DNA of 27,076 nucleotides from Candidatus Micrarchaeia archaeon (lineage in GTDB: Archaea > Micrarchaeota > Micrarchaeia > Anstonellales > J096), in the NCBI GenBank assembly GCA_041500405.1, contig JBGQMB010000012.1, positions 1-27,076 of the forward strand, in the 5' to 3' direction. The notes below the pieces were generated by a model. It searched no databases. It was given only the letters and a program-made list of their open reading frames with translations, and was not told the DNA's origin. Both the position numbers and the translations under genes were made by a program. This document shows positions 1 through 23,574 of the stretch, in pieces. How positions within the stretch are numbered: position 1 is the stretch's first letter; each line of letters starts with the position of its first letter.

Positions 1-41
1 ATTGCCGCAAGCGCCGCTCCGGCAACAAGCATCCTTCCCAT
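1..41 (-). CDS. 5' end of a further paralog of the secreted TPR/transglutaminase-like family (runs off the window start)
   Basis: Nt 1-79 are identical to 1254-1332. The ATG at 41 gives MGRMLVAGAALAA, the same N-terminus as the 74..1294 gene. Confidence 0.75.
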   Translation of the reverse strand, partial: MGRMLVAGAALAA

Positions 42-79
42 GTTTCAGATTATGTACAAATGAGTATAAAAACCTATTC
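1..79. repeat. Leader repeat copy 1 (upstream gene stop + TATA + start of signal peptide)
   Basis: 79/79 identical to 1254-1332; may extend beyond the window edge. Confidence 0.95.
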
Positions 80-1294
80 GGGCTGGGCATCCCCTGCCGT
101 CAGGGCTTTGGCCTTCGCCCTGTCCGCGTCCGCCTCTTTTTCCATATCCAGCAGAAAATAGGCACGGGAGCGGCTAAGATAGTAATCCGGATCCCGAGGC
201 TCGAGTTTTATGGCTTTGCTGAAATCCTTGACTGCCCGCCGCAATTTCCTATAATAGACATCCAGCTGGTTTCCAAGGAGGTCAGAGTAACAACATAGGT
301 TATAGTAGCATTTTCCCCGCAGATAATACAAGTCAGCGGCAAGCGAGTCCATTTTTATGGCCTTGTCATAGTCCCTTAGTGCTAGCCAAGTTTTCCCCAG
401 CTTCTCATAAGCGTCCCCACGACAACAGTAACAAGTCGCGCACGGCAACAGGTCTATAGCTTTGTTGAAGTCCTTGACTGCCCGCCACAATTTCCACCTG
501 TTACAATATGAAGCTCCACGCTTCTCATATGCCATAAATAAAATCTTTTCAGGGTCTGATGTTATGGCTTCGATGATTGGATAATGATCGTGGACCTTTT
601 TCAGTGGGTAATACTCTCCGACTAGTATTTCAAAAAAGAAATTTTGCGTCTTGACAAGCTGATGCATCCAAACAACAACCATCTCCATCTTGATATGGAG
701 TTCTTTTGCCACATCAAAGACGACAAAACTGGAGGTAGTGCATTCAAACTTACCGGTTTTAATTGATTCGGACATGTAGCCAATGTAGTCCTCAATATAG
801 CCATTCGTATCGCAGCCCCAGTGTTTTTTGAAGTGCATGATGCTGTTTATGCCGGTTATGAACTTTTCCTCATCCATCTGGGCTTTTCTCCCCAGCAGGT
901 CCAGAAGACCGTCTAACACATTAGCATCAAGGCGACAAAGGTGTTTCCATAGAAATCCCCTGTACTCATGCCTCAGGATATATGAAACGTCAGAAACAAG
1001 CTCGTTGTATCTCCGTGCATAAGCGGCCGCCTGCTTTGGGGTATTCTCCAATTCAATCATAATCCTTCTGCTTCCTGCGGTTTCCTTGGTAATGTCGGAC
1101 TGTTTTGTGGGAACTTTTGCAAGCAAGGAGTCTATCCAAGGCGCTGTCTTTACTCTGATGCTGTCGGCCGCTGCCTTTTCCATCATCGTTTTCTCTGCCA
1201 GCGGCTGCGCAGTTATCCTTGGTTTTTTGTCGCAAGCCGGACTAATTGCCAGCATTGCCGCAAGCGCCGCTCCGGCAACAAGCATCCTTCCCAT
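74..1294 (-). CDS. Secreted/lipoprotein transglutaminase-like (SirB1/Transglut_core2-type) domain + TPR repeat protein
   Basis: Signal peptide with lipobox-like ISPAC. GKFECTTSS...VWMHQLVK...FFEI gives a Cys/His/Glu arrangement. C-terminal TPRs (AYEKRG..AVKDFNKAI, YYLSRSRAY). Confidence 0.75.
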   Translation of the reverse strand: MGRMLVAGAALAAMLAISPACDKKPRITAQPLAEKTMMEKAAADSIRVKTAPWIDSLLAKVPTKQSDITKETAGSRRIMIELENTPKQAAAYARRYNELVSDVSYILRHEYRGFLWKHLCRLDANVLDGLLDLLGRKAQMDEEKFITGINSIMHFKKHWGCDTNGYIEDYIGYMSESIKTGKFECTTSSFVVFDVAKELHIKMEMVVVWMHQLVKTQNFFFEILVGEYYPLKKVHDHYPIIEAITSDPEKILFMAYEKRGASYCNRWKLWRAVKDFNKAIDLLPCATCYCCRGDAYEKLGKTWLALRDYDKAIKMDSLAADLYYLRGKCYYNLCCYSDLLGNQLDVYYRKLRRAVKDFSKAIKLEPRDPDYYLSRSRAYFLLDMEKEADADRAKAKALTAGDAQPE

Positions 1295-1340
1295 GTTTCA
1301 GATTATGTACAAATGAGTATAAAAACCTATTCAGGCCGAG
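1254..1340. repeat. Leader repeat copy 2
   Basis: 1254-1332 is identical to 1-79. 1279-1340 matches 3458-3519 at 57/62. Contains TTTTTATA on the minus strand about 25 nt upstream of ATG 1294. Confidence 0.95.
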
Positions 1341-2098
1341 GACTCCTTTTGGCCGAGGATGCGCTTCGCCAATTCCTCTATCTCCGTGACGGTCTTGATG
1401 CCGCAGTTGCGGAACCTCCTGAGGCACATCCTGCGTTCCCTTTCGTCAGGGTTCTCCCTATAGAAGCGCCCGAGGTCAAGGATGCCCGGCGCATCGCTGC
1501 CTGTCGCCCAGCGCAGTATGTTGACTGCGCGCACGCTGGCCCCGAAATAGCACAGCGATGGGTTCTCGAATCCGTACTTGTGGCAGAACGACTCTATCTC
1601 GTGCTGGAGCGTCCCCTTTTCGGGGTAAAACCCAAGCCCCTGCATCCCCCTGCGCCATGCCAGCAGATCGTCGGCCGTCGGATACTTCTTTCCAGTGAGT
1701 TCCTGTGCCATCCCAAAAGCCATGGAATTCATGCCAAGCTCCTTGAGGCCGCGCAAGATTCCCATCCCGACTCCGAGCCCGATTACCTCTTTTTTGTGCA
1801 TGCATTTTTTCAGGCGCGCAGCGATCTCCGGGTTTGCCATGCCTTCTTTGAAATCATCAGGAATAGGCACCTTCTTGCCCGTATAGCGGCTGACTGCGCA
1901 GACTGCGCCGTATCCAAGCCCCATGGCGCCGAGCGTGCCGGGCGCGTTCCTTTTTTCGAACAAGTCAAGCGAGTCAAGCGCGAACTTGATGTTCTGGTGG
2001 CTCATGTCGTATTTCCTGGCTATGCCCCTTAGGCTCACGCCTTTTTTCCTCAGGCTGGCTATCTCCCTGTTGCGTTGCAGGCGCTGCTCGAAGTTCAT
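1331..2098 (-). CDS. HTH protein with RNA polymerase alpha-CTD-like (HhH) C-terminal domain
   Basis: N-terminal RNREIASLRKKGVSLRGIARKYDMSHQNI HTH. C-terminal SVRAVNILR...LRRFRNCGIKTVTEIEE resembles alpha-CTD. TATA-like TTTTTAAAT near 2120-2129. Confidence 0.6.
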   Translation of the reverse strand: MNFEQRLQRNREIASLRKKGVSLRGIARKYDMSHQNIKFALDSLDLFEKRNAPGTLGAMGLGYGAVCAVSRYTGKKVPIPDDFKEGMANPEIAARLKKCMHKKEVIGLGVGMGILRGLKELGMNSMAFGMAQELTGKKYPTADDLLAWRRGMQGLGFYPEKGTLQHEIESFCHKYGFENPSLCYFGASVRAVNILRWATGSDAPGILDLGRFYRENPDERERRMCLRRFRNCGIKTVTEIEELAKRILGQKESSA

Positions 2099-2139
2099 GT
2101 TGTAATTAGTGGAAGAAAGTATTTAAAAAGCATGGCTTC

Positions 2140-2225
2140 TTATGCAGAAAGGCCTGCCAGATACTCCATCTCCTCATCCGTCATATTGTAGAATATCTTC
2201 GCCTTCTCCGCATCCGACATCACCA
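2140..2225 (-). pseudogene. Orphan 3' end of the RFC large subunit gene (alternative allele)
   Basis: 70/86 nt identical, ungapped, to 3510-3595. Translates VMSDAEKAKIFYNMTDEEMEYLAGLSA* versus VMSDSEKAKIFYNMTDEEMEYLSGLST*. Confidence 0.92.
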
Positions 2226-3473
2226 CTCATCATTATCGTAGTATTCGTTTACTATGCTGCTGTCTGCCCTGTACTCCTCCATCATGCCCAGCTTTTTGTA
2301 TGCAAGTGCGCGGTTATTGTAGAAGGTTGCATCATCCGTTGAGCCCAGCTCTATCGCCTTGCTGTAATCCATTACCGCCAGCACATATTCCCCAAGATTG
2401 TAGTGCGCAACGCCGCGGCTGTTGAACAAATCGGCGTTCTTCGGTTCCAGTTCCACCTTCATCGCCTCGCCATAATCCCCGATCGCCAGCCTGTAATCGC
2501 CCAATTCGAGAAATTCGCTTCCGCGATTGCAATATGCATCCATGAGGAATCTGTTATCATGCTTGAAGCATGCGTTTGCGTGCTTCGTCATCCCCATTAT
2601 CGACAGGGTATAAAACAGGATTGCCTGATGATGCTGCCCGCATTTGGCAAGCTTCGCCCCCTTGCGCCAATAGATGTTTGCCAGGGCGACCTCAATGTCG
2701 GATGTCACGTCGTAGACAACCGGATACGTGTCATAAACGTAATCCAAGGTGTAATGGCATCCCGTTGTTGTCTCGAAACACAGGTTTCCCACCTTGGCGA
2801 ACTCATGCTCAGGGACCAAGACCAGCTCTGTCCAGATGCCGAGGGAATTTGCCACGTCAAATGCCAGGAATGCCGAACTGGCGCAATTGAACTTTCCGGT
2901 CCTGACGAGCGCGCCCATATCCGCTCCTTTTTCATAGCTCATTTCCAAATCGCGTGACATGATCCTCCATATGCCTTTCATGAATTTTTTTTCGCTTACT
3001 GCGTATGCCTTTTTTCTGTCTCCATACCTTTCCCTGATTGTCCCGGAGATGGCCGCAACAAGCCTGTTATATTCATGCGCATACGCGGCCGCGGTTTCGG
3101 CGGTATCCGCCTCTATCATTATCCTCTTGCTTCCGGCAATCCTAAAAGGGGCGATAGCGTCGCCGAGGCCCGCGGGATGTTCCCTCGAATACCATCTCGC
3201 CAAAAAGGATTTTATGGACGGGGCAACAGCAATGCCGGTTTTATCTGCCGCGGATGAATCTTGCGTATTGATGTTTGAATAATGCCATTTTGCAAAAAAG
3301 GAATCTATCTCGGACTTGGTAAAGGACGTGTCATCTTTCCCCATCGCGGAGTCCAGCATGGTCATTGGCCTTTCTTCCAACGGCTGCGCCCATATCTTGG
3401 GTTTCTTGTCAAAAGCCGGGCCTGCCGCAAGAATGGACGCGGCAAGCACACAGGTCGCAAGCATCCTTCCCAT
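2220..3473 (-). CDS. Secreted transglutaminase-like domain + TPR repeat protein (paralog of 74..1294)
   Basis: Signal peptide MGRMLATCVLAASILAAGPA. GKFNCASS...VPEHEFAK...FETT motif. TPRs (AYCNRG, LFNSRG, FYNNRA). Shares AGS(K/R)RIMIE with the paralog. Confidence 0.78.
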   Translation of the reverse strand: MGRMLATCVLAASILAAGPAFDKKPKIWAQPLEERPMTMLDSAMGKDDTSFTKSEIDSFFAKWHYSNINTQDSSAADKTGIAVAPSIKSFLARWYSREHPAGLGDAIAPFRIAGSKRIMIEADTAETAAAYAHEYNRLVAAISGTIRERYGDRKKAYAVSEKKFMKGIWRIMSRDLEMSYEKGADMGALVRTGKFNCASSAFLAFDVANSLGIWTELVLVPEHEFAKVGNLCFETTTGCHYTLDYVYDTYPVVYDVTSDIEVALANIYWRKGAKLAKCGQHHQAILFYTLSIMGMTKHANACFKHDNRFLMDAYCNRGSEFLELGDYRLAIGDYGEAMKVELEPKNADLFNSRGVAHYNLGEYVLAVMDYSKAIELGSTDDATFYNNRALAYKKLGMMEEYRADSSIVNEYYDNDEW

Positions 3474-3519
3474 GTTTTAGATTATGGACAAATGAGTATA
3501 AAAAGGTATTCAGGTCGAG
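3458..3519. repeat. Leader repeat copy 3, including the rfcL stop codon
   Basis: 57/62 identical to 1279-1340. Confidence 0.92.
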
Positions 3520-4679
3520 AGCCCGGACAGGTATTCCATCTCTTCGTCCGTCATATTGTAGAATATCTTCGCCTTTTCCGAATCAGACATGACCAGCTTC
3601 GCGTAAAGCGGCAGGAACGGAATCACCCTTTTGGAGGACGTGTGGACCCTTTTTCCAATCTTCAACGCAACGGACTTTGCCATCGCCCTTGCCATCATGG
3701 ACCTGCTCATCTCGACAAGGTAAAGCGGGAACTGGTAGTTCTCAACCGGCTTGTTGTACGCCTTTTTCTTGCTCAGGCCAACGCCGGCAGTCATAAGCGT
3801 GACGGAATATCTCATATAGCCGTAATACTGCCTCCTGAAAATCCTTCCGTCGAAAACATCGGCCCTTGAAAGCCAGTTGAACGCCTCCGCGATTTCCTCC
3901 GGCGTCTCGTACTCGCGCGCTATGTTCTCGTCCAGCCATAGCTTGAGCATGTCAGTATCCATATCCATGACTGAAGATGCGTAGCGCGCGCCTGAAAGCG
4001 TTGTGCACCTGAATATTGTCTTGAGAACGCTTTTGTCGTCTATTCTCCTGTCCCTTGGGCTGAACGACGCTGCCTCAAGGTCGTTGAGCGCGGAGCGCAG
4101 GTCCCCGGAACAGCCCTGGGATATCCTCATTATCGCTTCCTCGCCTGCGTCCAGCTTTTCCTTCTGCGACACCTCGCGGAGGAGATTTGCGACGTCGGAC
4201 GGCGCGATTTTCTTCATCTGGATTGCCTTGACGTACATCCTCAGCGGCTTTAGCTTCGGTTCGGACGTGTCGTTCGCGGTTATTATGACAGGCACGCTGG
4301 TTTCCTTTATCAGGTTGACAAGCTCGCCTATGCCGCCCCTGTCGTCCTTTGTCATCGCGTCCGCGTCATCAACAAGTATAATCCTTTTCCTTCCGAAAAC
4401 GGTCCTTGAGAAGAAGGCCGGCCTTATGTTTTTCTCAAGCGTCGCCCTGTCCCTCAGGCTGCTTGAGGATATCTCCAGCATCTCCAAACCAAAGTCCCTT
4501 GCAAGCGCGTACGCAAGGCTTGTCTTTCCCACGCCCGGAGGCCCGCCGACCATCAGGGGCTTTTCCCTTTTGCCGCTTAGGATGGCGCCCAGCCAGGCCT
4601 TGGCCGCTGCCTTGACCTCGTCGTTGCCTATCATCCCTGAAACGGATTTCGGCATGTACTTCCTTGTCAGCGGCACCAT
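3510..4679 (-). CDS. rfcL: Replication factor C large subunit
   Basis: PLTRKYMPKS, Walker A GPPGVGKTS, Walker B IILVDDAD, GDLRSALNDL, and C-terminal WLDENI..WLSRADVFDGRI. ATG at 4679 with TTTTAAAA at 4701-4708. Confidence 0.92.
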   Translation of the reverse strand: MVPLTRKYMPKSVSGMIGNDEVKAAAKAWLGAILSGKREKPLMVGGPPGVGKTSLAYALARDFGLEMLEISSSSLRDRATLEKNIRPAFFSRTVFGRKRIILVDDADAMTKDDRGGIGELVNLIKETSVPVIITANDTSEPKLKPLRMYVKAIQMKKIAPSDVANLLREVSQKEKLDAGEEAIMRISQGCSGDLRSALNDLEAASFSPRDRRIDDKSVLKTIFRCTTLSGARYASSVMDMDTDMLKLWLDENIAREYETPEEIAEAFNWLSRADVFDGRIFRRQYYGYMRYSVTLMTAGVGLSKKKAYNKPVENYQFPLYLVEMSRSMMARAMAKSVALKIGKRVHTSSKRVIPFLPLYAKLVMSDSEKAKIFYNMTDEEMEYLSGLST

Positions 4680-4788
4680 CAAGGCAGTATCAGCGGCATC
4701 TTTTAAAACATTGACGGGCGCGGCAACCCCAGTATCTCAGGCGGAATTTCACACACATTTAAAAACCCTTTTAGACACAAAAAAATCC

Positions 4789-5433
4789 ATGACATTCAAG
4801 GAAAGAAAGTATGCCATGGCAAGCGAACCCGGGTTCAAGAGGCAGGTCGGAGGCAGCAGGCTTAAGGCGGTAAAAAAGCCAAAGCCGGACGATTCAGAAA
4901 GCCCGCTGCAGGCGCAGATAAGGGTGCTGAAGGAAAAGGTCTTGGATTTATCAGGTTCGTCCACAGAAAAGGAGGCAAAGGCGATTTGTGCTGAGCTGGG
5001 CGACTTATATTCATTGGACAGGCGATTCCATCTTGCAGGCGTTTATTACAAAAAAGCCGGTGCGCTTGTCCCCGCAGGCAACGCGTTCATGGCAGCCAAG
5101 GAATATTTCTCCGCGGCAAGGTGCCTTGAAACCGCAGGCGAGAAAAAGCTGGCCAAAAAGGCGTATAAGCTGGCAGCTAGGCAGGAGATGAAGAGCTGCA
5201 ACTACGCTGTCGCGATTTGTGCCTACAGGAAGGCGGGCAAACTGAAAACGGCAAAGGCAATAGAGGATAAGATGCTGGAAAAGGCCGCATTGGCCAAGAA
5301 GCGCTTGGAAACAAAAAGAAAGAACGCGGTGCCGATAAGGCATCCGTCCCAGATGGGCGACCTTGAAAGGTATGAGTATGATAAAGCGATGAAGGGAGCG
5401 GCCAAGAAGGCAGCATCGAGGAAACAAAAATAA
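4789..5433 (+). CDS. Basic alpha-solenoid (TPR/SNAP-like) protein
   Basis: Start reassigned to ATG 4789 (TTTAAAA near 4758). Repeats AGVYYKKAG, AARCLETAG, AICAYRKAG. Confidence 0.65.
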   Translation: MTFKERKYAMASEPGFKRQVGGSRLKAVKKPKPDDSESPLQAQIRVLKEKVLDLSGSSTEKEAKAICAELGDLYSLDRRFHLAGVYYKKAGALVPAGNAFMAAKEYFSAARCLETAGEKKLAKKAYKLAARQEMKSCNYAVAICAYRKAGKLKTAKAIEDKMLEKAALAKKRLETKRKNAVPIRHPSQMGDLERYEYDKAMKGAAKKAASRKQK

Positions 5434-5449
5434 TTGCGGTGAGTATATT

Positions 5450-6841
5450 ATGGCGGAAACCCTTGAAAGGACAATAGGCAAGTGCAAAGGCAAGCCCGGA
5501 TACAGCGGAATGGGCAGGCCAACCAATGCCTTCAGGGAAAAACACAAGGGGACAATAAGAAGATCCATCGCAACGGTTGCGGAAAAATTCAAGGACGCGC
5601 AAGGCGGCGCCCCTGAAACAGGGCCCGGTGCCAAGTACGAGGAGGGCATTCTCATCAGGAACGGCCTGAAGATAAAGCCGCCCGGAGTGAAATGGGGCGT
5701 ATTGATACCAGAATGGGCAGGGCATAGGGGCCCGCCCACGCACGAGCTGCGCATCAAGCACGGGTTTGCTGAGCCAGCCAAAGAATTCAGCTGGAGCGAT
5801 ATCATACCTGAATACAAGGGAGAAGGTATGCCTTCAGATGAAGTGCTTTTGGAGCACAATCTTGCTAGGAAAACAGAATCAGGCGCCATAATAAAGATAA
5901 AGCCAAAAGGCGCAAAATGGGGAGACGTCATAGAGGAGCACCGTGGAAAGAAAGGCCCAGCTCCGCTTGGGCTGCGCATCAAGCACGGCTTTGCAGAGCC
6001 AAGGCCAGAAAAGGAAAAGGCCGAAAAGGAGCCAAAGCCGAAAAAATTCAGCTGGAAAAACATCCCGGAATACACCGGAAGGGGACTGCCGTCAGACCCC
6101 ATACTTGAGAGATATGGGCTCCCGACAAGGAGCCAGCGCGCGGAGATGGCGCAAAAAGCAGATGCGCCAAACAATGATACAAAAGTAATGGCCAGGGCCG
6201 ACGGGCTGAAGATAAAGCCAAAGGGCGTCAAATGGGGAGAGGTCATTTCAGAATGGAAAGGCAGGATGGGCCCGCCAACCAGGGCGCTGCTTGAAAAATA
6301 CGGGTTCGCGCCGCTTTCCACATGGAAGGAGCCAAAGAAGAAAGCGCCAAAGCAGGAAAACGCGTACATGAACAAACAGTTCAGGAAAAATCTGATCGAG
6401 GACGGCCCGGTGGTAGAGCCGCCGGATGAAAATGAGCAGGACGAGATTGAGGCGTTGCTGCCGGAGGAGAAGCCCGTTGAAAAAAGGGCGACCGCACGCA
6501 ATGCGGCTGCCGCGCGCCCGGCAAGGCGCGAAAGGGTAGAGGAAACCCAGGCTTTCATTAGCACAGATTCTGAAAGAAGGGCTTTCGACGCCAAGATGGA
6601 AAGGCTCAGGATAGGGGTCGAAACCCTTGAGGGGACCGGAAGGCCCGAGGAGGCGAAAAAGGCGTGGGCGGAAATAGCGGACATATACCGGTCAAAGGGG
6701 CTGAATCTGCTGGCAGGCGCCTATTTCAAAAAGGCCGGCGAATACAAAAAGGCCGCGCAGGCGTTCAACGCCTGCGGCGAATACGACAAGGCCAAGCTTT
6801 GCCGCGAAAAGGCAAATGAAACGAGGCGCGGGGCAACATGA
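5450..6841 (+). CDS. Protein with five or six novel W..E[WYH]xG..P repeats and a C-terminal TPR/SNAP-like solenoid
   Basis: Three KIKPxGxKWG..HGFAEP-type units alternate with two FSW..IPEYxGxGxPSD units. C-terminal AGAYFKKAGEYKKAAQAF. Confidence 0.7.
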   Translation: MAETLERTIGKCKGKPGYSGMGRPTNAFREKHKGTIRRSIATVAEKFKDAQGGAPETGPGAKYEEGILIRNGLKIKPPGVKWGVLIPEWAGHRGPPTHELRIKHGFAEPAKEFSWSDIIPEYKGEGMPSDEVLLEHNLARKTESGAIIKIKPKGAKWGDVIEEHRGKKGPAPLGLRIKHGFAEPRPEKEKAEKEPKPKKFSWKNIPEYTGRGLPSDPILERYGLPTRSQRAEMAQKADAPNNDTKVMARADGLKIKPKGVKWGEVISEWKGRMGPPTRALLEKYGFAPLSTWKEPKKKAPKQENAYMNKQFRKNLIEDGPVVEPPDENEQDEIEALLPEEKPVEKRATARNAAAARPARRERVEETQAFISTDSERRAFDAKMERLRIGVETLEGTGRPEEAKKAWAEIADIYRSKGLNLLAGAYFKKAGEYKKAAQAFNACGEYDKAKLCREKANETRRGAT

Positions 6842-11837: not shown

Positions 11838-12833
11838 ATGGCAAACGGCACCTTGGCTGTGAAAGAGGAAAAGCTCAGGATTTCCAGGAATGAAAGGCGC
11901 GAAATCCTCAAGACAACCGATGCATTGGTTGCGCGGAGCATGAAATCCGCCGTCACCAAGATGAGGTTTGACATTTACAGTTCTTGCTCAACAGTGTCTG
12001 CGCGGACGACAATAGCCAAAGTGTCCCGCATTGCAGAGGACTTTGAAGCCGGCGCGTTCATGGAATTCGGCAAGGCATGGGACAAGTACCAAAATGCGCT
12101 CAGCCTTGCAAAATCCAATCCCTCCGCAGAGACCGGAAGAAGGTATTACAGGGCGCTGGACACGCTTGCAAACGAGTTCAACAGCGCAATAAACGATTAT
12201 GCCGAGAGCAAGTCCAAATTGTGGCTCGGCTGGCCGAACCTTTTCATCAATTCCGCGGACTTGGCGGGATACGCGCTCATCCCGTTCACCATCGGCCTGG
12301 GAGGCATAATGGAAAAAGGGTTCGCAAAGGCCGCGAAGGCGATAACAAAAAAGTATGCCGGGAACCAGCTGGCAAGGCCGCTTGCGCAAGAGCTGATAAA
12401 GAAGGAGATAAAGCACACTGTCAACATGGCGTTCAACACGTTCTTTGCGCTTTCAATATCAGGAAGCCTTGGGTCAACATTGGCAAAGGATCTTATAGGC
12501 AAGCCGTCGGCCGCAAAACAGGCGATAGACATGTCCTCGTTCGCAACCATGGTGCTGAAGGACAGGGATGCGACAAACAGGCTTTGCGAGTCCATGAGGC
12601 AGATAGGCGCGCTTGCCCCGGAAGCCCACACGGTCGCGTTTGAGGACAAGATGATGGAAATAGCAAACCCACCTTTGGACATTGGCAAATATATGAGCTC
12701 GGTTGGCATGCAGGTGGCGCTGCTCGCACTGATAAACAGGAATGCGATGCTGAAAGGCGCGAAAAAAATCCTGCAAAGGTCGGGAACAATGAGCCCGGCG
12801 ACAGTAGCCAAGCTCAGGTATTCAGGGCTTTGA
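11838..12833 (+). CDS. Hypothetical helical protein with hydrophobic segments
   Basis: 331-aa ORF with its own TTTAAA box near 11811. Hydrophobic Gly-rich stretches LAGYALIPFTIGLGG and FFALSISGSLG. Confidence 0.65.
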   Translation: MANGTLAVKEEKLRISRNERREILKTTDALVARSMKSAVTKMRFDIYSSCSTVSARTTIAKVSRIAEDFEAGAFMEFGKAWDKYQNALSLAKSNPSAETGRRYYRALDTLANEFNSAINDYAESKSKLWLGWPNLFINSADLAGYALIPFTIGLGGIMEKGFAKAAKAITKKYAGNQLARPLAQELIKKEIKHTVNMAFNTFFALSISGSLGSTLAKDLIGKPSAAKQAIDMSSFATMVLKDRDATNRLCESMRQIGALAPEAHTVAFEDKMMEIANPPLDIGKYMSSVGMQVALLALINRNAMLKGAKKILQRSGTMSPATVAKLRYSGL

Positions 12834-16466: not shown

Positions 16467-17555
16467 ATGATACTTGCTGACGAGTTCGGGCCAGAATACG
16501 AGATTGAAGTTCGGGACCACAACGCAGGGCTTGAGGCATACCTTGTGATTGACAACACTGCGCGCGGCGTGGGCAAGGGCGGCATAAGGTTCGTTCCGGA
16601 TGTAACAAAGGAGGAGGTATTCGGCCTTGCAAGGGCAATGACGTGGAAGAACGCGCTTGCGGACCTTCCGTTTGGCGGTGCGAAAGCCGGCATAAGGGAC
16701 ACGGGCAAGGCGAGCAAGGAGTCCCTTGTCAGGGCGTTCGCGAAAAAGATAAAGCCGCTGCTCAACTCCCTTTTCATCGCTGGGCCGGACATGTACACAG
16801 GCGAGCGCGAGATGGGCATAATCGCCGAGGTCGCGGGCCAGGACTCCGCTACAGGAAAGCCGGCAATAATGGGAGGGCTGCCGCATGAGCTGGGCTCAAC
16901 AGGCTACGGCGTCGCGGTGTGCATAAAGGAGGGAATGAAGGCGCTTGGCGAAAGCGTTGAGGGAAAGCGCATCGCGATAGAAGGATTCGGCAATGTCGGA
17001 ACCTTTGCGGCAAAATTCCTTTCAGAGATGGGCGCGAAGATAGTCGCGGTTTCCGACTCAAAAGGCTTCATTTATTCCAAGAACGGATTTGACGTCAGCG
17101 AGCTCATAAAGGCAAAGGCGGAACAGGGCTCCGTCACTGCGCAAAAGGCGGAGATGAACGGACCCCATGAATGGCTTTTCGAGGCCGACGCGGACATCCT
17201 TGTGCCTGGCGCAAGGCCCAACAGCGTGAATGAAACAAATTACGGTAGGATAAAGGCGAAATACATCTTCGAGGCCGCGAACATCCCGATGTCAAATGAC
17301 GTCGAGAAAAAACTGTGCAATGCGGGAAAAACGGTTTTTCCAGACATCCTTGTCAACGCGGGCGGCGTGATAAGCTCGTACGCGGAGCTGATGCACTACG
17401 ACGAAAAGAAGATGTTCCAGCTGGTGCATGAAAAAATCTCTGACAACACGAAGGAGGTTGTCAAGAAGGCAAACGGCGATTGTTTCCTCAGGAAATACGC
17501 AATGGAAATAGCGAAGGCAAGGGTGCTGAAGGCGGATGAAAAAAGAAGGCCCTAA
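16467..17555 (+). CDS. gdhA: Glu/Leu/Phe/Val dehydrogenase (glutamate dehydrogenase-like)
   Basis: GKGGIRF, MTWKNALADLPFGGAKAGI, GPDMYT, TGYGV, EGFGNVG, EAANIP, PDILVNAGGV. Start reassigned to ATG 16467. Substrate specificity not certain. Confidence 0.85.
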   Translation: MILADEFGPEYEIEVRDHNAGLEAYLVIDNTARGVGKGGIRFVPDVTKEEVFGLARAMTWKNALADLPFGGAKAGIRDTGKASKESLVRAFAKKIKPLLNSLFIAGPDMYTGEREMGIIAEVAGQDSATGKPAIMGGLPHELGSTGYGVAVCIKEGMKALGESVEGKRIAIEGFGNVGTFAAKFLSEMGAKIVAVSDSKGFIYSKNGFDVSELIKAKAEQGSVTAQKAEMNGPHEWLFEADADILVPGARPNSVNETNYGRIKAKYIFEAANIPMSNDVEKKLCNAGKTVFPDILVNAGGVISSYAELMHYDEKKMFQLVHEKISDNTKEVVKKANGDCFLRKYAMEIAKARVLKADEKRRP

Positions 17556-18247: not shown

Positions 18248-18967
18248 ATGCGGCTTATGGAAAGGAAGCCAATAAGGGAAATGCGCATCAGGCTCAAGGC
18301 ATTGTTCAGCCGCAGCAAGGCGCGCTTTGAGAAAAACGGGGCTGCCCAGGGGCATCTTGACCTCAAGCTTTTCAATGAATGCAAGGTCGCGCAGCAGGAG
18401 GACGCCAGGGCCAAGGAGGTCAGGCGACTGCTGAAGCAGGGCGCAAACCCGGACGTATCGCTCAACTGGGACGGCGTTTCTGCGCTTGCGCACGCTGCGC
18501 AGAACGAGTCCTGCAAAATCGCCAAATTATTGCTTAAGGCCGGCGCAAACCCGAACGCAAGGGACAAGAATGGATGCACGCCGCTCATGCATGCAACAAA
18601 ATACGTAAATGAGACTGCGACAGCAAAGATTCTCCTTGAATATGGCGCAGACCCGAACGCAAGGGACAACAACGGATGGACGCCGCTCATGTACGCGGCG
18701 TCCAAGGGCGGCCCGGAACTTGCGAGGCTCCTGCTTGAGCGCGGCGCATTCATGACCGCAACAAGCAGAAAGGGCAACACCGCGCTGATGCACCTTGAGA
18801 AAAGGCACGCGAAATGCACGCTCCCCCTTGGCGGATATGGGGATCAGGAAATCTATGACGGCATAATCAAAGTTTTCAATGAGCACAGGGCAAGGACGCT
18901 GAAACGCATCACTGGCTTTGCCTTCGCGAAATTCAAGTCAAATTTCAGGGAATGCGCGAGCCATTAG
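18248..18967 (+). CDS. Ankyrin repeat protein (Ank1)
   Basis: GANPNARDKNGCTPLMHA and GADPNARDNNGWTPLMYA. Start reassigned to ATG 18248 (or 18257) using the TATA near 18218. Confidence 0.88.
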   Translation: MRLMERKPIREMRIRLKALFSRSKARFEKNGAAQGHLDLKLFNECKVAQQEDARAKEVRRLLKQGANPDVSLNWDGVSALAHAAQNESCKIAKLLLKAGANPNARDKNGCTPLMHATKYVNETATAKILLEYGADPNARDNNGWTPLMYAASKGGPELARLLLERGAFMTATSRKGNTALMHLEKRHAKCTLPLGGYGDQEIYDGIIKVFNEHRARTLKRITGFAFAKFKSNFRECASH

Positions 18968-21957: not shown

Positions 21958-23574
21958 ATGCGCCTTTCCAAAAGGAAGTATATTGTGATTCTCGGCTCAT
22001 TGATGTCCGGCCTTGGCAAGGGCATACTCTCATCCTCTATAGGAAAAATCCTGCAAAGCAACGGCCTCAAGGTAGTCCCGATAAAGTTTGACGGCTACCT
22101 GAACGTGGACTGCGGGACAATGAATCCGTACAGGCACGGCGAAGTGTTTGTCTTGGACGACGGGACGGAGTGCGACATGGATTTCGGGACCTATGAGCGG
22201 TTCCTCAACTACAACCTGGAAGGCATCAGCAGCATAACAGGCGGAAAAATATTCAAGAGGATAATAGACAAGGAAAGGAAGGGCGACTTCCTTGGCCGCG
22301 ATGTGCAGATAGTCCCGCACCTCACTGACGAGCTCAAGAAATGGGTAAAGGACGTGGGCGAGCATTTTGGCGCCGACGTGGTGCTTGTGGAGGTCGGCGG
22401 AACGGTCGGCGACATCGAGAACAGCTATTTCATAGAGGCGATGAGGCAGATGTCCTTTGAGGAGCACGGCAACATGCTGTTTATACAGCTGACTTACGTG
22501 AACAGCATATCAAAGGGCGAGCAGAAGACGAAACCTACTCAGCACGCCAATAGGCTGCTTGCTTCTCTTGGCATCCATCCGCACATAATAATAACAAGGG
22601 AGGACGAGCCCTTGACAAAGGAGTCAAAGGAGAAGATAAACATATTCTGCAATGTTCCCCCTGAAAACGTGTTCGACGACCCCATGCTGGAGACGGTTTA
22701 CGAGCTTCCGCTTGTGCTTGAGAAGCAGGGCCTGAGCAGTGTGCTTTGCAAGGAGCTTGGCATAGAAACGAGGCGCGACGGGCTGAAGGAATGGTCCGCA
22801 ATAGTGGACAGGATCAAGGAGCCTAAAAAGGAGATAAACGTCGCCATAGTGGGCAAATACATGAGAGTCAGGGATGCCTACGCAAGCATTTATGAGGCGC
22901 TCATCCACGCTGGCGCGGCCACAAATTCCAAGATAATCATGAAGCACGTGGAATCGTCCGAGCTTGACGACGGAAAGATAAAGGCCGCGGACGCGCTCGG
23001 GGGCATTGATGCCGTGATTGTCCCCGGCGGGTTCGGGGCAAGGGGCGTTGAAGGCAAGATAGCCGCAATAAAATATTGCAGGGAAAACAGGGTTCCGTAC
23101 CTTGGGCTCTGCCTTGGCATGCAGCTCATGGCAGTGGAATACGCAAGGAACGTCTGCGGAATGGAAAACGCAAATTCGACGGAGTTTGACGAAAAAACAG
23201 AATACCCGGTCATTTACCTTATGCCGGAGCAGGAGGGCGTGAAGGAGAAAGGCGCAACAATGAGGCTCGGCGCATACGAGTGCGTGCTCAAGGAGGGGAC
23301 AATGGCGCACAAGGCATACGGAACAATAAAAATAAGCGAAAGGCACAGACATAGGTACGAGGCCAACAACGGGCTTGTCAGGCAGATGGAAGACAAGGGA
23401 TTGGTCGTCTCCGGAACATCGCCGGACAAAAGGATAATAGAGGTGGTGGAATGGAAGGACTCCTTCGGCATAGGCACGCAGGCCCATCCTGAGCTCAAAA
23501 GCAGGCTGGAGCGCCCCGCCCCGCTTTTCGTGGCCCTTGTCGAGGCCGCGCTAAGGAAACAAAGAAAGGAATAA
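21958..23574 (+). CDS. pyrG: CTP synthase
   Basis: SGLGKGI, GTMNPYRHGEVFV, EVGGTVGDIE, KTKPTQH, LGLCLGMQL, ERHRHRYE, QAHPE. Confidence 0.97.
   Translation: MRLSKRKYIVILGSLMSGLGKGILSSSIGKILQSNGLKVVPIKFDGYLNVDCGTMNPYRHGEVFVLDDGTECDMDFGTYERFLNYNLEGISSITGGKIFKRIIDKERKGDFLGRDVQIVPHLTDELKKWVKDVGEHFGADVVLVEVGGTVGDIENSYFIEAMRQMSFEEHGNMLFIQLTYVNSISKGEQKTKPTQHANRLLASLGIHPHIIITREDEPLTKESKEKINIFCNVPPENVFDDPMLETVYELPLVLEKQGLSSVLCKELGIETRRDGLKEWSAIVDRIKEPKKEINVAIVGKYMRVRDAYASIYEALIHAGAATNSKIIMKHVESSELDDGKIKAADALGGIDAVIVPGGFGARGVEGKIAAIKYCRENRVPYLGLCLGMQLMAVEYARNVCGMENANSTEFDEKTEYPVIYLMPEQEGVKEKGATMRLGAYECVLKEGTMAHKAYGTIKISERHRHRYEANNGLVRQMEDKGLVVSGTSPDKRIIEVVEWKDSFGIGTQAHPELKSRLERPAPLFVALVEAALRKQRKE

Follow-up and report, generated by a model that had tools for sequence, protein, structure and literature searches.

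The gene for the large subunit of replication factor C, rfcL, is found with two ends in a Micrarchaeia archaeon: the resident 3ʹ end that completes the gene, and an orphan copy of that end that lies downstream beyond a leader and a TPR gene. The differences between these tails support their identification as diverged functional alleles rather than as a gene end and its decayed duplicate. The orphan tail is most readily understood as a recombination scar that belongs to a known type, in which the anchor gene and the lineage are new. Judging from sequence comparisons, we consider it probable that the scar arose through a homology-anchored gain of a relative's DNA, in which one homologous crossover in rfcL was combined with one joint at a short imperfect match.

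Arrangement of the rfcL locus

The window, meaning the whole stretch of 27,076 nucleotides that was analysed, is contig C12 of G000, a metagenome-assembled genome of 0.92 Mb in 60 contigs that is 86% complete. On the minus strand, rfcL is followed in turn by a leader, TPR-A, the orphan tail, the HTH-like gene, a leader, TPR-B and a leader (Table 1). Homologs of rfcL are named RFC large subunit and are 66-86% identical to it, and the best PDB match is yeast RFC1. Beyond leader C, contig C26 carries TPR-C, a tRNA-like gene and a gene that we take to be rpS13, recognised from its sequence with no family search.

Table 1. Features of the rfcL locus (window coordinates) and other scars of the same anatomy in the genus (contig or locus coordinates).
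Feature	Location	Strand	Basis or remark
Intact rfcL (large subunit of replication factor C, 389 aa)	3510..4679	-	Pfam AAA and RCF1-5 lid
Resident rfcL tail, putative incoming allele; last 10 nt in leader module	3510..3595	-	Alignment
29-nt identical core, resident copy	3547..3575	-	Alignment
Leader module A: upstream gene end, 36-nt spacer, start of MGRML signal-like N-terminus	3458..3519	-	
Cargo TPR-A, 417 aa, hydrophobic N-terminus, C-terminal TPRs	2220..3473	-	TGA 6 nt inside orphan
Putative inserted unit (one tail copy, leader and TPR-A), 1370 nt	2226..3595	-	Repeat spacing; other genes after rfcL in relatives
Orphan rfcL tail, 27 codons and TAA, putative original end	2140..2225	-	Alignment
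Orphan copy of the 29-nt identical core; may mark a crossover or a conversion tract	2177..2205	-	Alignment
HTH-like gene, 255 aa, putative former rfcL neighbour	1331..2098	-	Weak N-terminal HTH match below Pfam cut-off
Leader module B	1279..1340	-	Alignment
TPR-B, 406 aa	74..1294	-	38% identical to TPR-A; 77% DNA identity to TPR-C
Leader module C	1..83	-	66-nt overlap with end of contig C26
FtsX permease scar, 67 nt, 1 mismatch	G000:C26:378-444 and 2161-2227 (L037)		Flanks DUF488 gene and 259-aa gene
T2SSF scar, 34 nt	G000:C3:21007-21040 and 22149-22182 (L057)		Flanks HEPN and nucleotidyltransferase genes
DUF475 scar, 36 nt	G000:C14:17772-17807 and 18488-18523 (L042)		Flanks phosphoribosyltransferase gene
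HMG-CoA synthase scar, 113 + 46 nt	G000:C20:448-588 vs 1538-1583 and 2060-2172 (L041)		Orphan middle deleted
RLI-like ATPase scar (presumed gene identity)	L089:3525-3604 and 5028-5068 (G001)		
Thermosome-like scar (presumed gene identity)	L096:14679-14758 and 16613-16692 (G001)		

The tRNA-like gene before rpS13 (L037:11115-11210; L031:2490-2590; L038:190-365) has an apparent insertion in the T-arm region and was missed by ARAGORN. In G002 it is seemingly absent or degraded, and the start of rpS13 in that genome also looks cut. Elsewhere in the window, positions 5450-6841 encode a lysine-rich protein of 463 aa with internal repeats and no Pfam match. A scan for sigma-70 promoters and terminators returned promoters at chance level, the sigma-70 model being unsuited to archaea.

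The TPR-A protein shares 38% identity with TPR-B and TPR-C, and as a query at E<=1e-8 it has no match in two sister genomes. One homolog, the metagenome protein P0018, is 46% identical with a near-identical N-terminus; no donor locus with TPR-A cargo was found in relatives. TPR-A ends at an alignment position that is common to its paralogs B and C, and thus the joint did not visibly cut the gene. Aligned Cys, His and Glu residues lie upstream of the TPRs in all three proteins, where there is no Pfam match; we presume that they resemble a transglutaminase-type site. The three TPR leaders (window 1-83, 1254-1340 and 3433-3519; G000:C26:11346-12534) are 92-99% identical, and the bodies of the genes are far more diverged. 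Leaders A and B share 92% identity over 62 nt. Among 176 genomes of the order, no close copy of the leader exists outside G000, and four weak AT-rich matches of 35-43 nt are taken as chance.

Two diverged ends of rfcL

The orphan tail encodes VMSDAEKAKIFYNMTDEEMEYLAGLSA-TAA and the resident tail VMSDSEKAKIFYNMTDEEMEYLSGLST-TGA. They align without gaps over 86 nt with 16 mismatches, and 3 of the 27 residues differ, which reproduces the alignment, the residue changes and the exchange of stop codons recorded in the initial annotation. By the Nei-Gojobori method, the 27 sense codons contain 12 synonymous differences at 16.0 sites and 3 non-synonymous differences at 65.0 sites. Neutral decay, for which a synonymous to non-synonymous ratio of about 1 to 4 is expected, is rejected (binomial P = 9e-7), and removal of the last three sense codons leaves 9 synonymous versus 2 non-synonymous differences (P = 8e-6). 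This excess indicates that both tails evolved as working rfcL ends, as had been proposed from the sequence at the outset. When the whole of G000 is searched with BLAST, the tail pair has E = 6e-20, and no third copy is among the matches.

Three features of the alignment, absent from the initial annotation, temper this count. A core of 29 nt is identical in both and exceeds the lengths obtained by codon shuffling (P 0.004-0.018); codon preference may explain part of this identity, given that several core codons are common to relatives. The final 10 nt of the resident tail agree with the HTH-gene end (1340-1331) at 9 of 10 positions and with the orphan at 5 of 10, and the same leader follows both the HTH-gene end and the resident rfcL end. 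Because of this resemblance, five of the 16 mismatches, including the stop codon swap, may not represent allele divergence. The first mismatch in the tails is the stop codon of TPR-A itself.

Relatives and the probable polarity of the exchange

The interval between rfcL and the tRNA-rpS13 pair is empty in G002 and at locus L038, and in G001 it contains a gene that we take to be VIT1-like. Since the interval is filled differently or is empty among G000, G001, G002 and L038, rfcL borders a variable spot.

The tails of G001, G002 and L038 match the orphan versus the resident at 56 versus 53, 56 versus 53 and 54 versus 51 of 84 nt, and hence all three relatives are closer to the orphan, by 3 nt each, in the comparison that the initial annotation had suggested. 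All three rfcL genes end in TAA, as does the orphan. Of the 15 sites in the 84-nt frame at which the tails differ, G001 agrees with the orphan at 7, with the resident at 4 and with neither at 4. In P0002, the relative with 86% identity, MSDAEK contains the Ala of the orphan; the second changed site is Ala in three other proteins. Both tails carry derived synonymous states, as is expected of two living alleles. At rfcL itself, these small margins hint at what is most likely the polarity of the exchange, in which the orphan would be the original rfcL end of the recipient.

It had also been proposed that the 3ʹ end of rfcL was swapped with one from another lineage. The presence of diverged alleles fits this proposal, whereas a recombination breakpoint within the gene did not emerge: a sliding-window comparison of dS and dN between rfcL and its G001 counterpart (13 windows) has no step, with synonymous sites near saturation. 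The closest relative's rfcL is 81% identical in DNA. The last window of the gene is the most divergent in protein, and this is the same in all relatives.

As proteins, the two tails resemble each other more than they do any other sequence found, which would place the donor in a closely related sister lineage outside the collections searched. Neither a donor allele nor an empty allele of the same species was present in the protein, metagenome, viral or genome collections searched, alleles above 90% identity being outside the search. A degenerate tail pattern, which demanded M, L or V before the last Glu and hence could not match P0002, identified a single locus among metagenome contigs, a G002-like empty site, and had 0 matches in viral contigs. 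A scan of genome contigs for the tail returned G001 and one distant locus only. No orphan tail occurs at 29 other rfcL loci of the order, within downstream flanks of about 1.2-1.5 kb (5-18 kb for six of them).

Assembly support in public sequencing runs

Five public sediment runs contain the stretch, three of them marked as possible sources and none of them an RNA run, and the contigs of four (X2, X3, X4 and X5) were compared with the window. Public contigs cross both junctions of the interval 2140-3595, the continuity of which the initial annotation had left to spanning reads. In X4, which is not marked as a possible source, contigs cover 1868-2289 with 0 differences and 3259-3911 with 3 differences; X2 covers 1778-3432 and X3 covers 543-6000. 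No joint that skips 2226-3595 is among the joints listed for the four runs, a result that concerns contigs, which drop rare variants. In X5, 45% of the words of the window are present; the gaps are low-depth holes without a joining contig, and they therefore provide no evidence of an empty allele. Contig 9 of X3 passes from the HTH gene into TPR-C-like sequence; it may have been assembled across the leader repeat, or it may represent a strain that lacks TPR-B.

Similar scars elsewhere in the genus

Self-comparison of G000 (1178 ORFs) revealed four more scars composed of a gene, cargo and an orphan end, and a 400-kb sample of G001 (495 ORFs) contains two, in genes that we take to encode an RLI-like ATPase (41 nt) and a thermosome-like protein (80 nt). 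Of the flagged rows, 11 of 15 in G000 and one of three in G001 were removed by eye, those in G000 as shadow frames in genes for repeat proteins or in tandem paralogs; the HMG-CoA synthase scar was found by the self-comparison and missed by the ORF filter. The resulting density is about five per Mb, as measured in genomes of this genus only.

In all of the scars that could be polarised (four of the six, with FtsX permease and HMG-CoA synthase left out), the orphan keeps the outgroup state. For example, the T2SSF site is empty in G001, where the downstream DNA and the codons match the orphan. The DUF475 orphan ends in ..SPA-stop and the G001 gene in ..GPA-stop, and the resident has a new ending of 5 residues. 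The RLI and thermosome orphans retain the stop position or codon of G000. The FtsX permease scar looks recent or derived from the same species. In the HMG-CoA synthase scar, non-synonymous changes are about as many as synonymous ones, and about 500 nt are missing from the middle of the orphan at a 5-nt CCGGA match.

The position of the joint relative to the cargo is also repeated. In four of five co-oriented cases the cargo stop falls within the orphan, at a depth of 6, 9, 9 and 11 nt, whereas the remaining cargo stops 12 nt before the orphan; the median spacer between long co-oriented ORFs is 39 nt. Three of the four stops inside orphans arise through a difference between orphan and resident. 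The closeness of stop and joint in this small set, in which TPR-A is the one cargo shown to be full-length, may need no more than short spacers, subsequent trimming and selection for intact cargo.

Three further repeats were left out of the scar counts. A 43-nt intergenic direct repeat (G000:C54:532-574 and 2191-2233; L043) surrounds a NIF3 gene and a fused binding-protein/ABC-ATPase fragment. Two tRNA-Arg-like copies that differ by one anticodon base (G000:C2:26282-26359 and 28201-28278; L044) have three ankyrin-like genes between them. A DGR-like repeat pair with adenine-biased differences (G000:C18:11706-11792 and 12154-12240) precedes a reverse-transcriptase-like gene.

Recombination functions and a proposed route

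The three genus genomes (G000, G001 and G002; 77-92% complete) were searched for recombination and uptake proteins. Tyrosine recombinases (PF00589) were found in 0 of these incomplete genomes, and with them no XerA-type enzyme; serine recombinases (PF00239, with PF07508 outside the search) were also found in 0 of 3. The same holds for ComEC and DprA (0 of 3 each), archaeal Ced-type uptake being outside the search. RadA (PF08423) is above the cut-off in all three. Control searches matched in 14 of 14 genomes for PF00589 and in 12 of 14 for PF00239, and in 10-14 of 14 for the recombinase and uptake families overall.

From two alleles that lie side by side at a variable locus, and from an anatomy that recurs in the genus, we infer the direction of the exchange (with the orphan as the old end), the donor and the route. 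DNA from a related lineage would have carried its own rfcL end followed by the leader and TPR-A, and would have recombined with rfcL by homology, via RadA. The other end of the donor DNA would then have been joined some 86 nt ahead of the host stop codon, at a short imperfect match, TGGT-G/C-ATG. This putative microhomology contains the cargo stop. As a result, rfcL would remain whole with a new end, whereas the old end, the downstream spacer and the HTH gene would be shifted by 1370 nt, leaving the old end as a dead orphan.

Three routes could produce this outcome. A linear fragment might integrate through homology-facilitated illegitimate recombination. Alternatively, a re-circularised fragment might pop in by one crossover in the 29-nt core, in which case both tails would be mosaics. 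Finally, a longer duplication might be trimmed later by deletion, and the HMG-CoA synthase scar displays such trimming in progress. The circle pop-in is slightly favoured over the other two by the 29-nt core.

Other possible origins

A nested history would have a resident-type rfcL end with leader and TPR gene arrive first, an orphan-type tail with the HTH gene next and TPR-A last. The orphan would then be a displaced end yet itself foreign, and about 10 nt of an older end would persist before leader B. The 9 of 10 match between the end of the HTH gene and the resident rfcL end, each before the same leader, agrees with such a sequence of events, but it would fit equally well with a donor in which a deletion had brought rfcL and the leader together. 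In addition, the orphan has the TAA and Ala states of the relatives, and we regard the nested history as unlikely. Quite improbable is site-specific integration of a cassette mobilised by an integrase and equipped, like e14 at icd, with its own replacement for the 3ʹ end, the 29-nt core serving as the att core. The anatomy does resemble icd/icdC (PMC13626634), and the identical core is longer than expected by chance. However, no tyrosine or serine recombinase was detected in any of the three genus genomes, the cargo is a single gene, and no viral contig has the tail pattern. Moreover, the seven scars affect seven unrelated genes through repeats of 34-113 nt with no common core seen, which argues against a site-specific enzyme.

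Local duplication within the lineage followed by neutral decay of one copy would suit a genome in which tandem paralog arrays are common, as well as the mutual closeness of the tails in protein. Barring selection on the copy, this origin is nevertheless highly improbable, because the 12 to 3 excess of synonymous differences runs opposite to the ratio that decay predicts. An assembly chimera of two co-occurring strains deserves consideration because the genome is metagenome-assembled, its contigs break at the leader repeat and a G001-like organism is present in the same samples, a loose end in X3. Contigs of X4, X2 and X3 nevertheless cross the junctions, which makes the chance of a chimera negligible.

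In a more speculative reading, the genus would gain genes routinely with no integrase, resolvase, ComEC or DprA, through a route in which the non-homologous joint is aimed at the 3ʹ end of the cargo, as the positions of the cargo stops might indicate. Such a route could include a transcript-guided or reverse-transcribed step in place of random microhomology and selection. A DGR-like reverse transcriptase gene is present in G000. We consider such a mechanism distinctly unlikely.

Possible translation of the orphan tail

The stop codon of TPR-A (2222-2220) overlaps the ATG of the orphan as TGATG, an overlap already noted in the initial annotation, which had added that a 26-residue RFC-L tail peptide could be translated by coupling. 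A stronger form of this idea holds that the orphan is kept by selection as such a peptide, made by termination-reinitiation from TPR-A and perhaps modulating RFC. Overlaps of this type are reported to be able to couple translation in archaea (PMC6728339). In G000, 30 of 453 long ORFs end in a TGATG overlap, and the frame and stop codon of the orphan are intact. However, a recently displaced allele would have an intact frame anyway, and the flanks searched at the 29 other rfcL loci have no orphan. The overlap itself follows from the Val-Met codons at the joint (GTG-ATG). An overlapped ATG is missing from all four of the other orphans that lie behind co-oriented cargo, and the coupling proposal is unsupported. 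Some read-through product from the overlap is possible, whereas retention of the orphan as a selected peptide is very unlikely. The RFC-L proteins of several relatives end in what we take to be a PCNA-binding-like motif, which the G000 tail does not have.

Relation to known systems

By itself, the orphan rfcL tail is an ordinary scar. It appears to record that a tiny DPANN archaeon exchanges the terminus of an essential replication gene with that of a relative at which synonymous sites approach saturation, in a genus where gene gain would proceed without the recombinases or uptake proteins that were searched for. Scars of this kind could serve as countable and polarisable markers of recent gene gains, and the placement of the joint near the cargo stop codon is a regularity that can be tested over many genomes. 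The literature covered, in which subscription journals are mostly missing, contains no description of Micrarchaeota islands with direct repeats or of DPANN gene acquisition.

Several known systems share parts of this anatomy. Integrase-free hotspots between core genes are common in bacteria (Oliveira et al. 2017, PMC5635113), and these resemble the rfcL locus in having variable content between fixed core neighbours, here rfcL and tRNA-rpS13, without mobility genes. However, the double homologous crossover invoked for hotspots leaves no orphan, and the model was built for bacteria. Prophage e14 leaves the C-terminal pseudogene icdC upon insertion at icd (PMC13626634). As at rfcL, the element brings a near-synonymous end and the other end is left as a fragment, and a chimeric gene would be restored if the insert were lost. 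The e14 element is 15 kb and is excised by site-specific recombination, whereas the rfcL insert is 1.37 kb with one gene and no recombinase found.

In E. coli conjugation, shortened donor DNA that has re-circularised integrates by a single crossover and creates duplications of 109-950 bp (PMC3240628). There, too, a partial gene duplication flanks foreign DNA and host recombination functions are sufficient. Those events involve laboratory conjugation and identical alleles, in contrast to the repeats of 34-113 nt in this genus, which are partly diverged.

Displacement of 3ʹ ends in T6SS effector and rhs genes also leaves orphan fragments, for which Kirchberger et al. (2017, PMC5361080) proposed homology-facilitated illegitimate recombination. 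The shared elements are an upstream homology anchor, an old 3ʹ end moved downstream, arrays built by successive events and no integrase shown. The rfcL case differs in that the anchor is a conserved replication gene of a DPANN archaeon, the replacement is a near-synonymous end rather than a new toxin domain, and a secreted, unrelated TPR gene forms the cargo.
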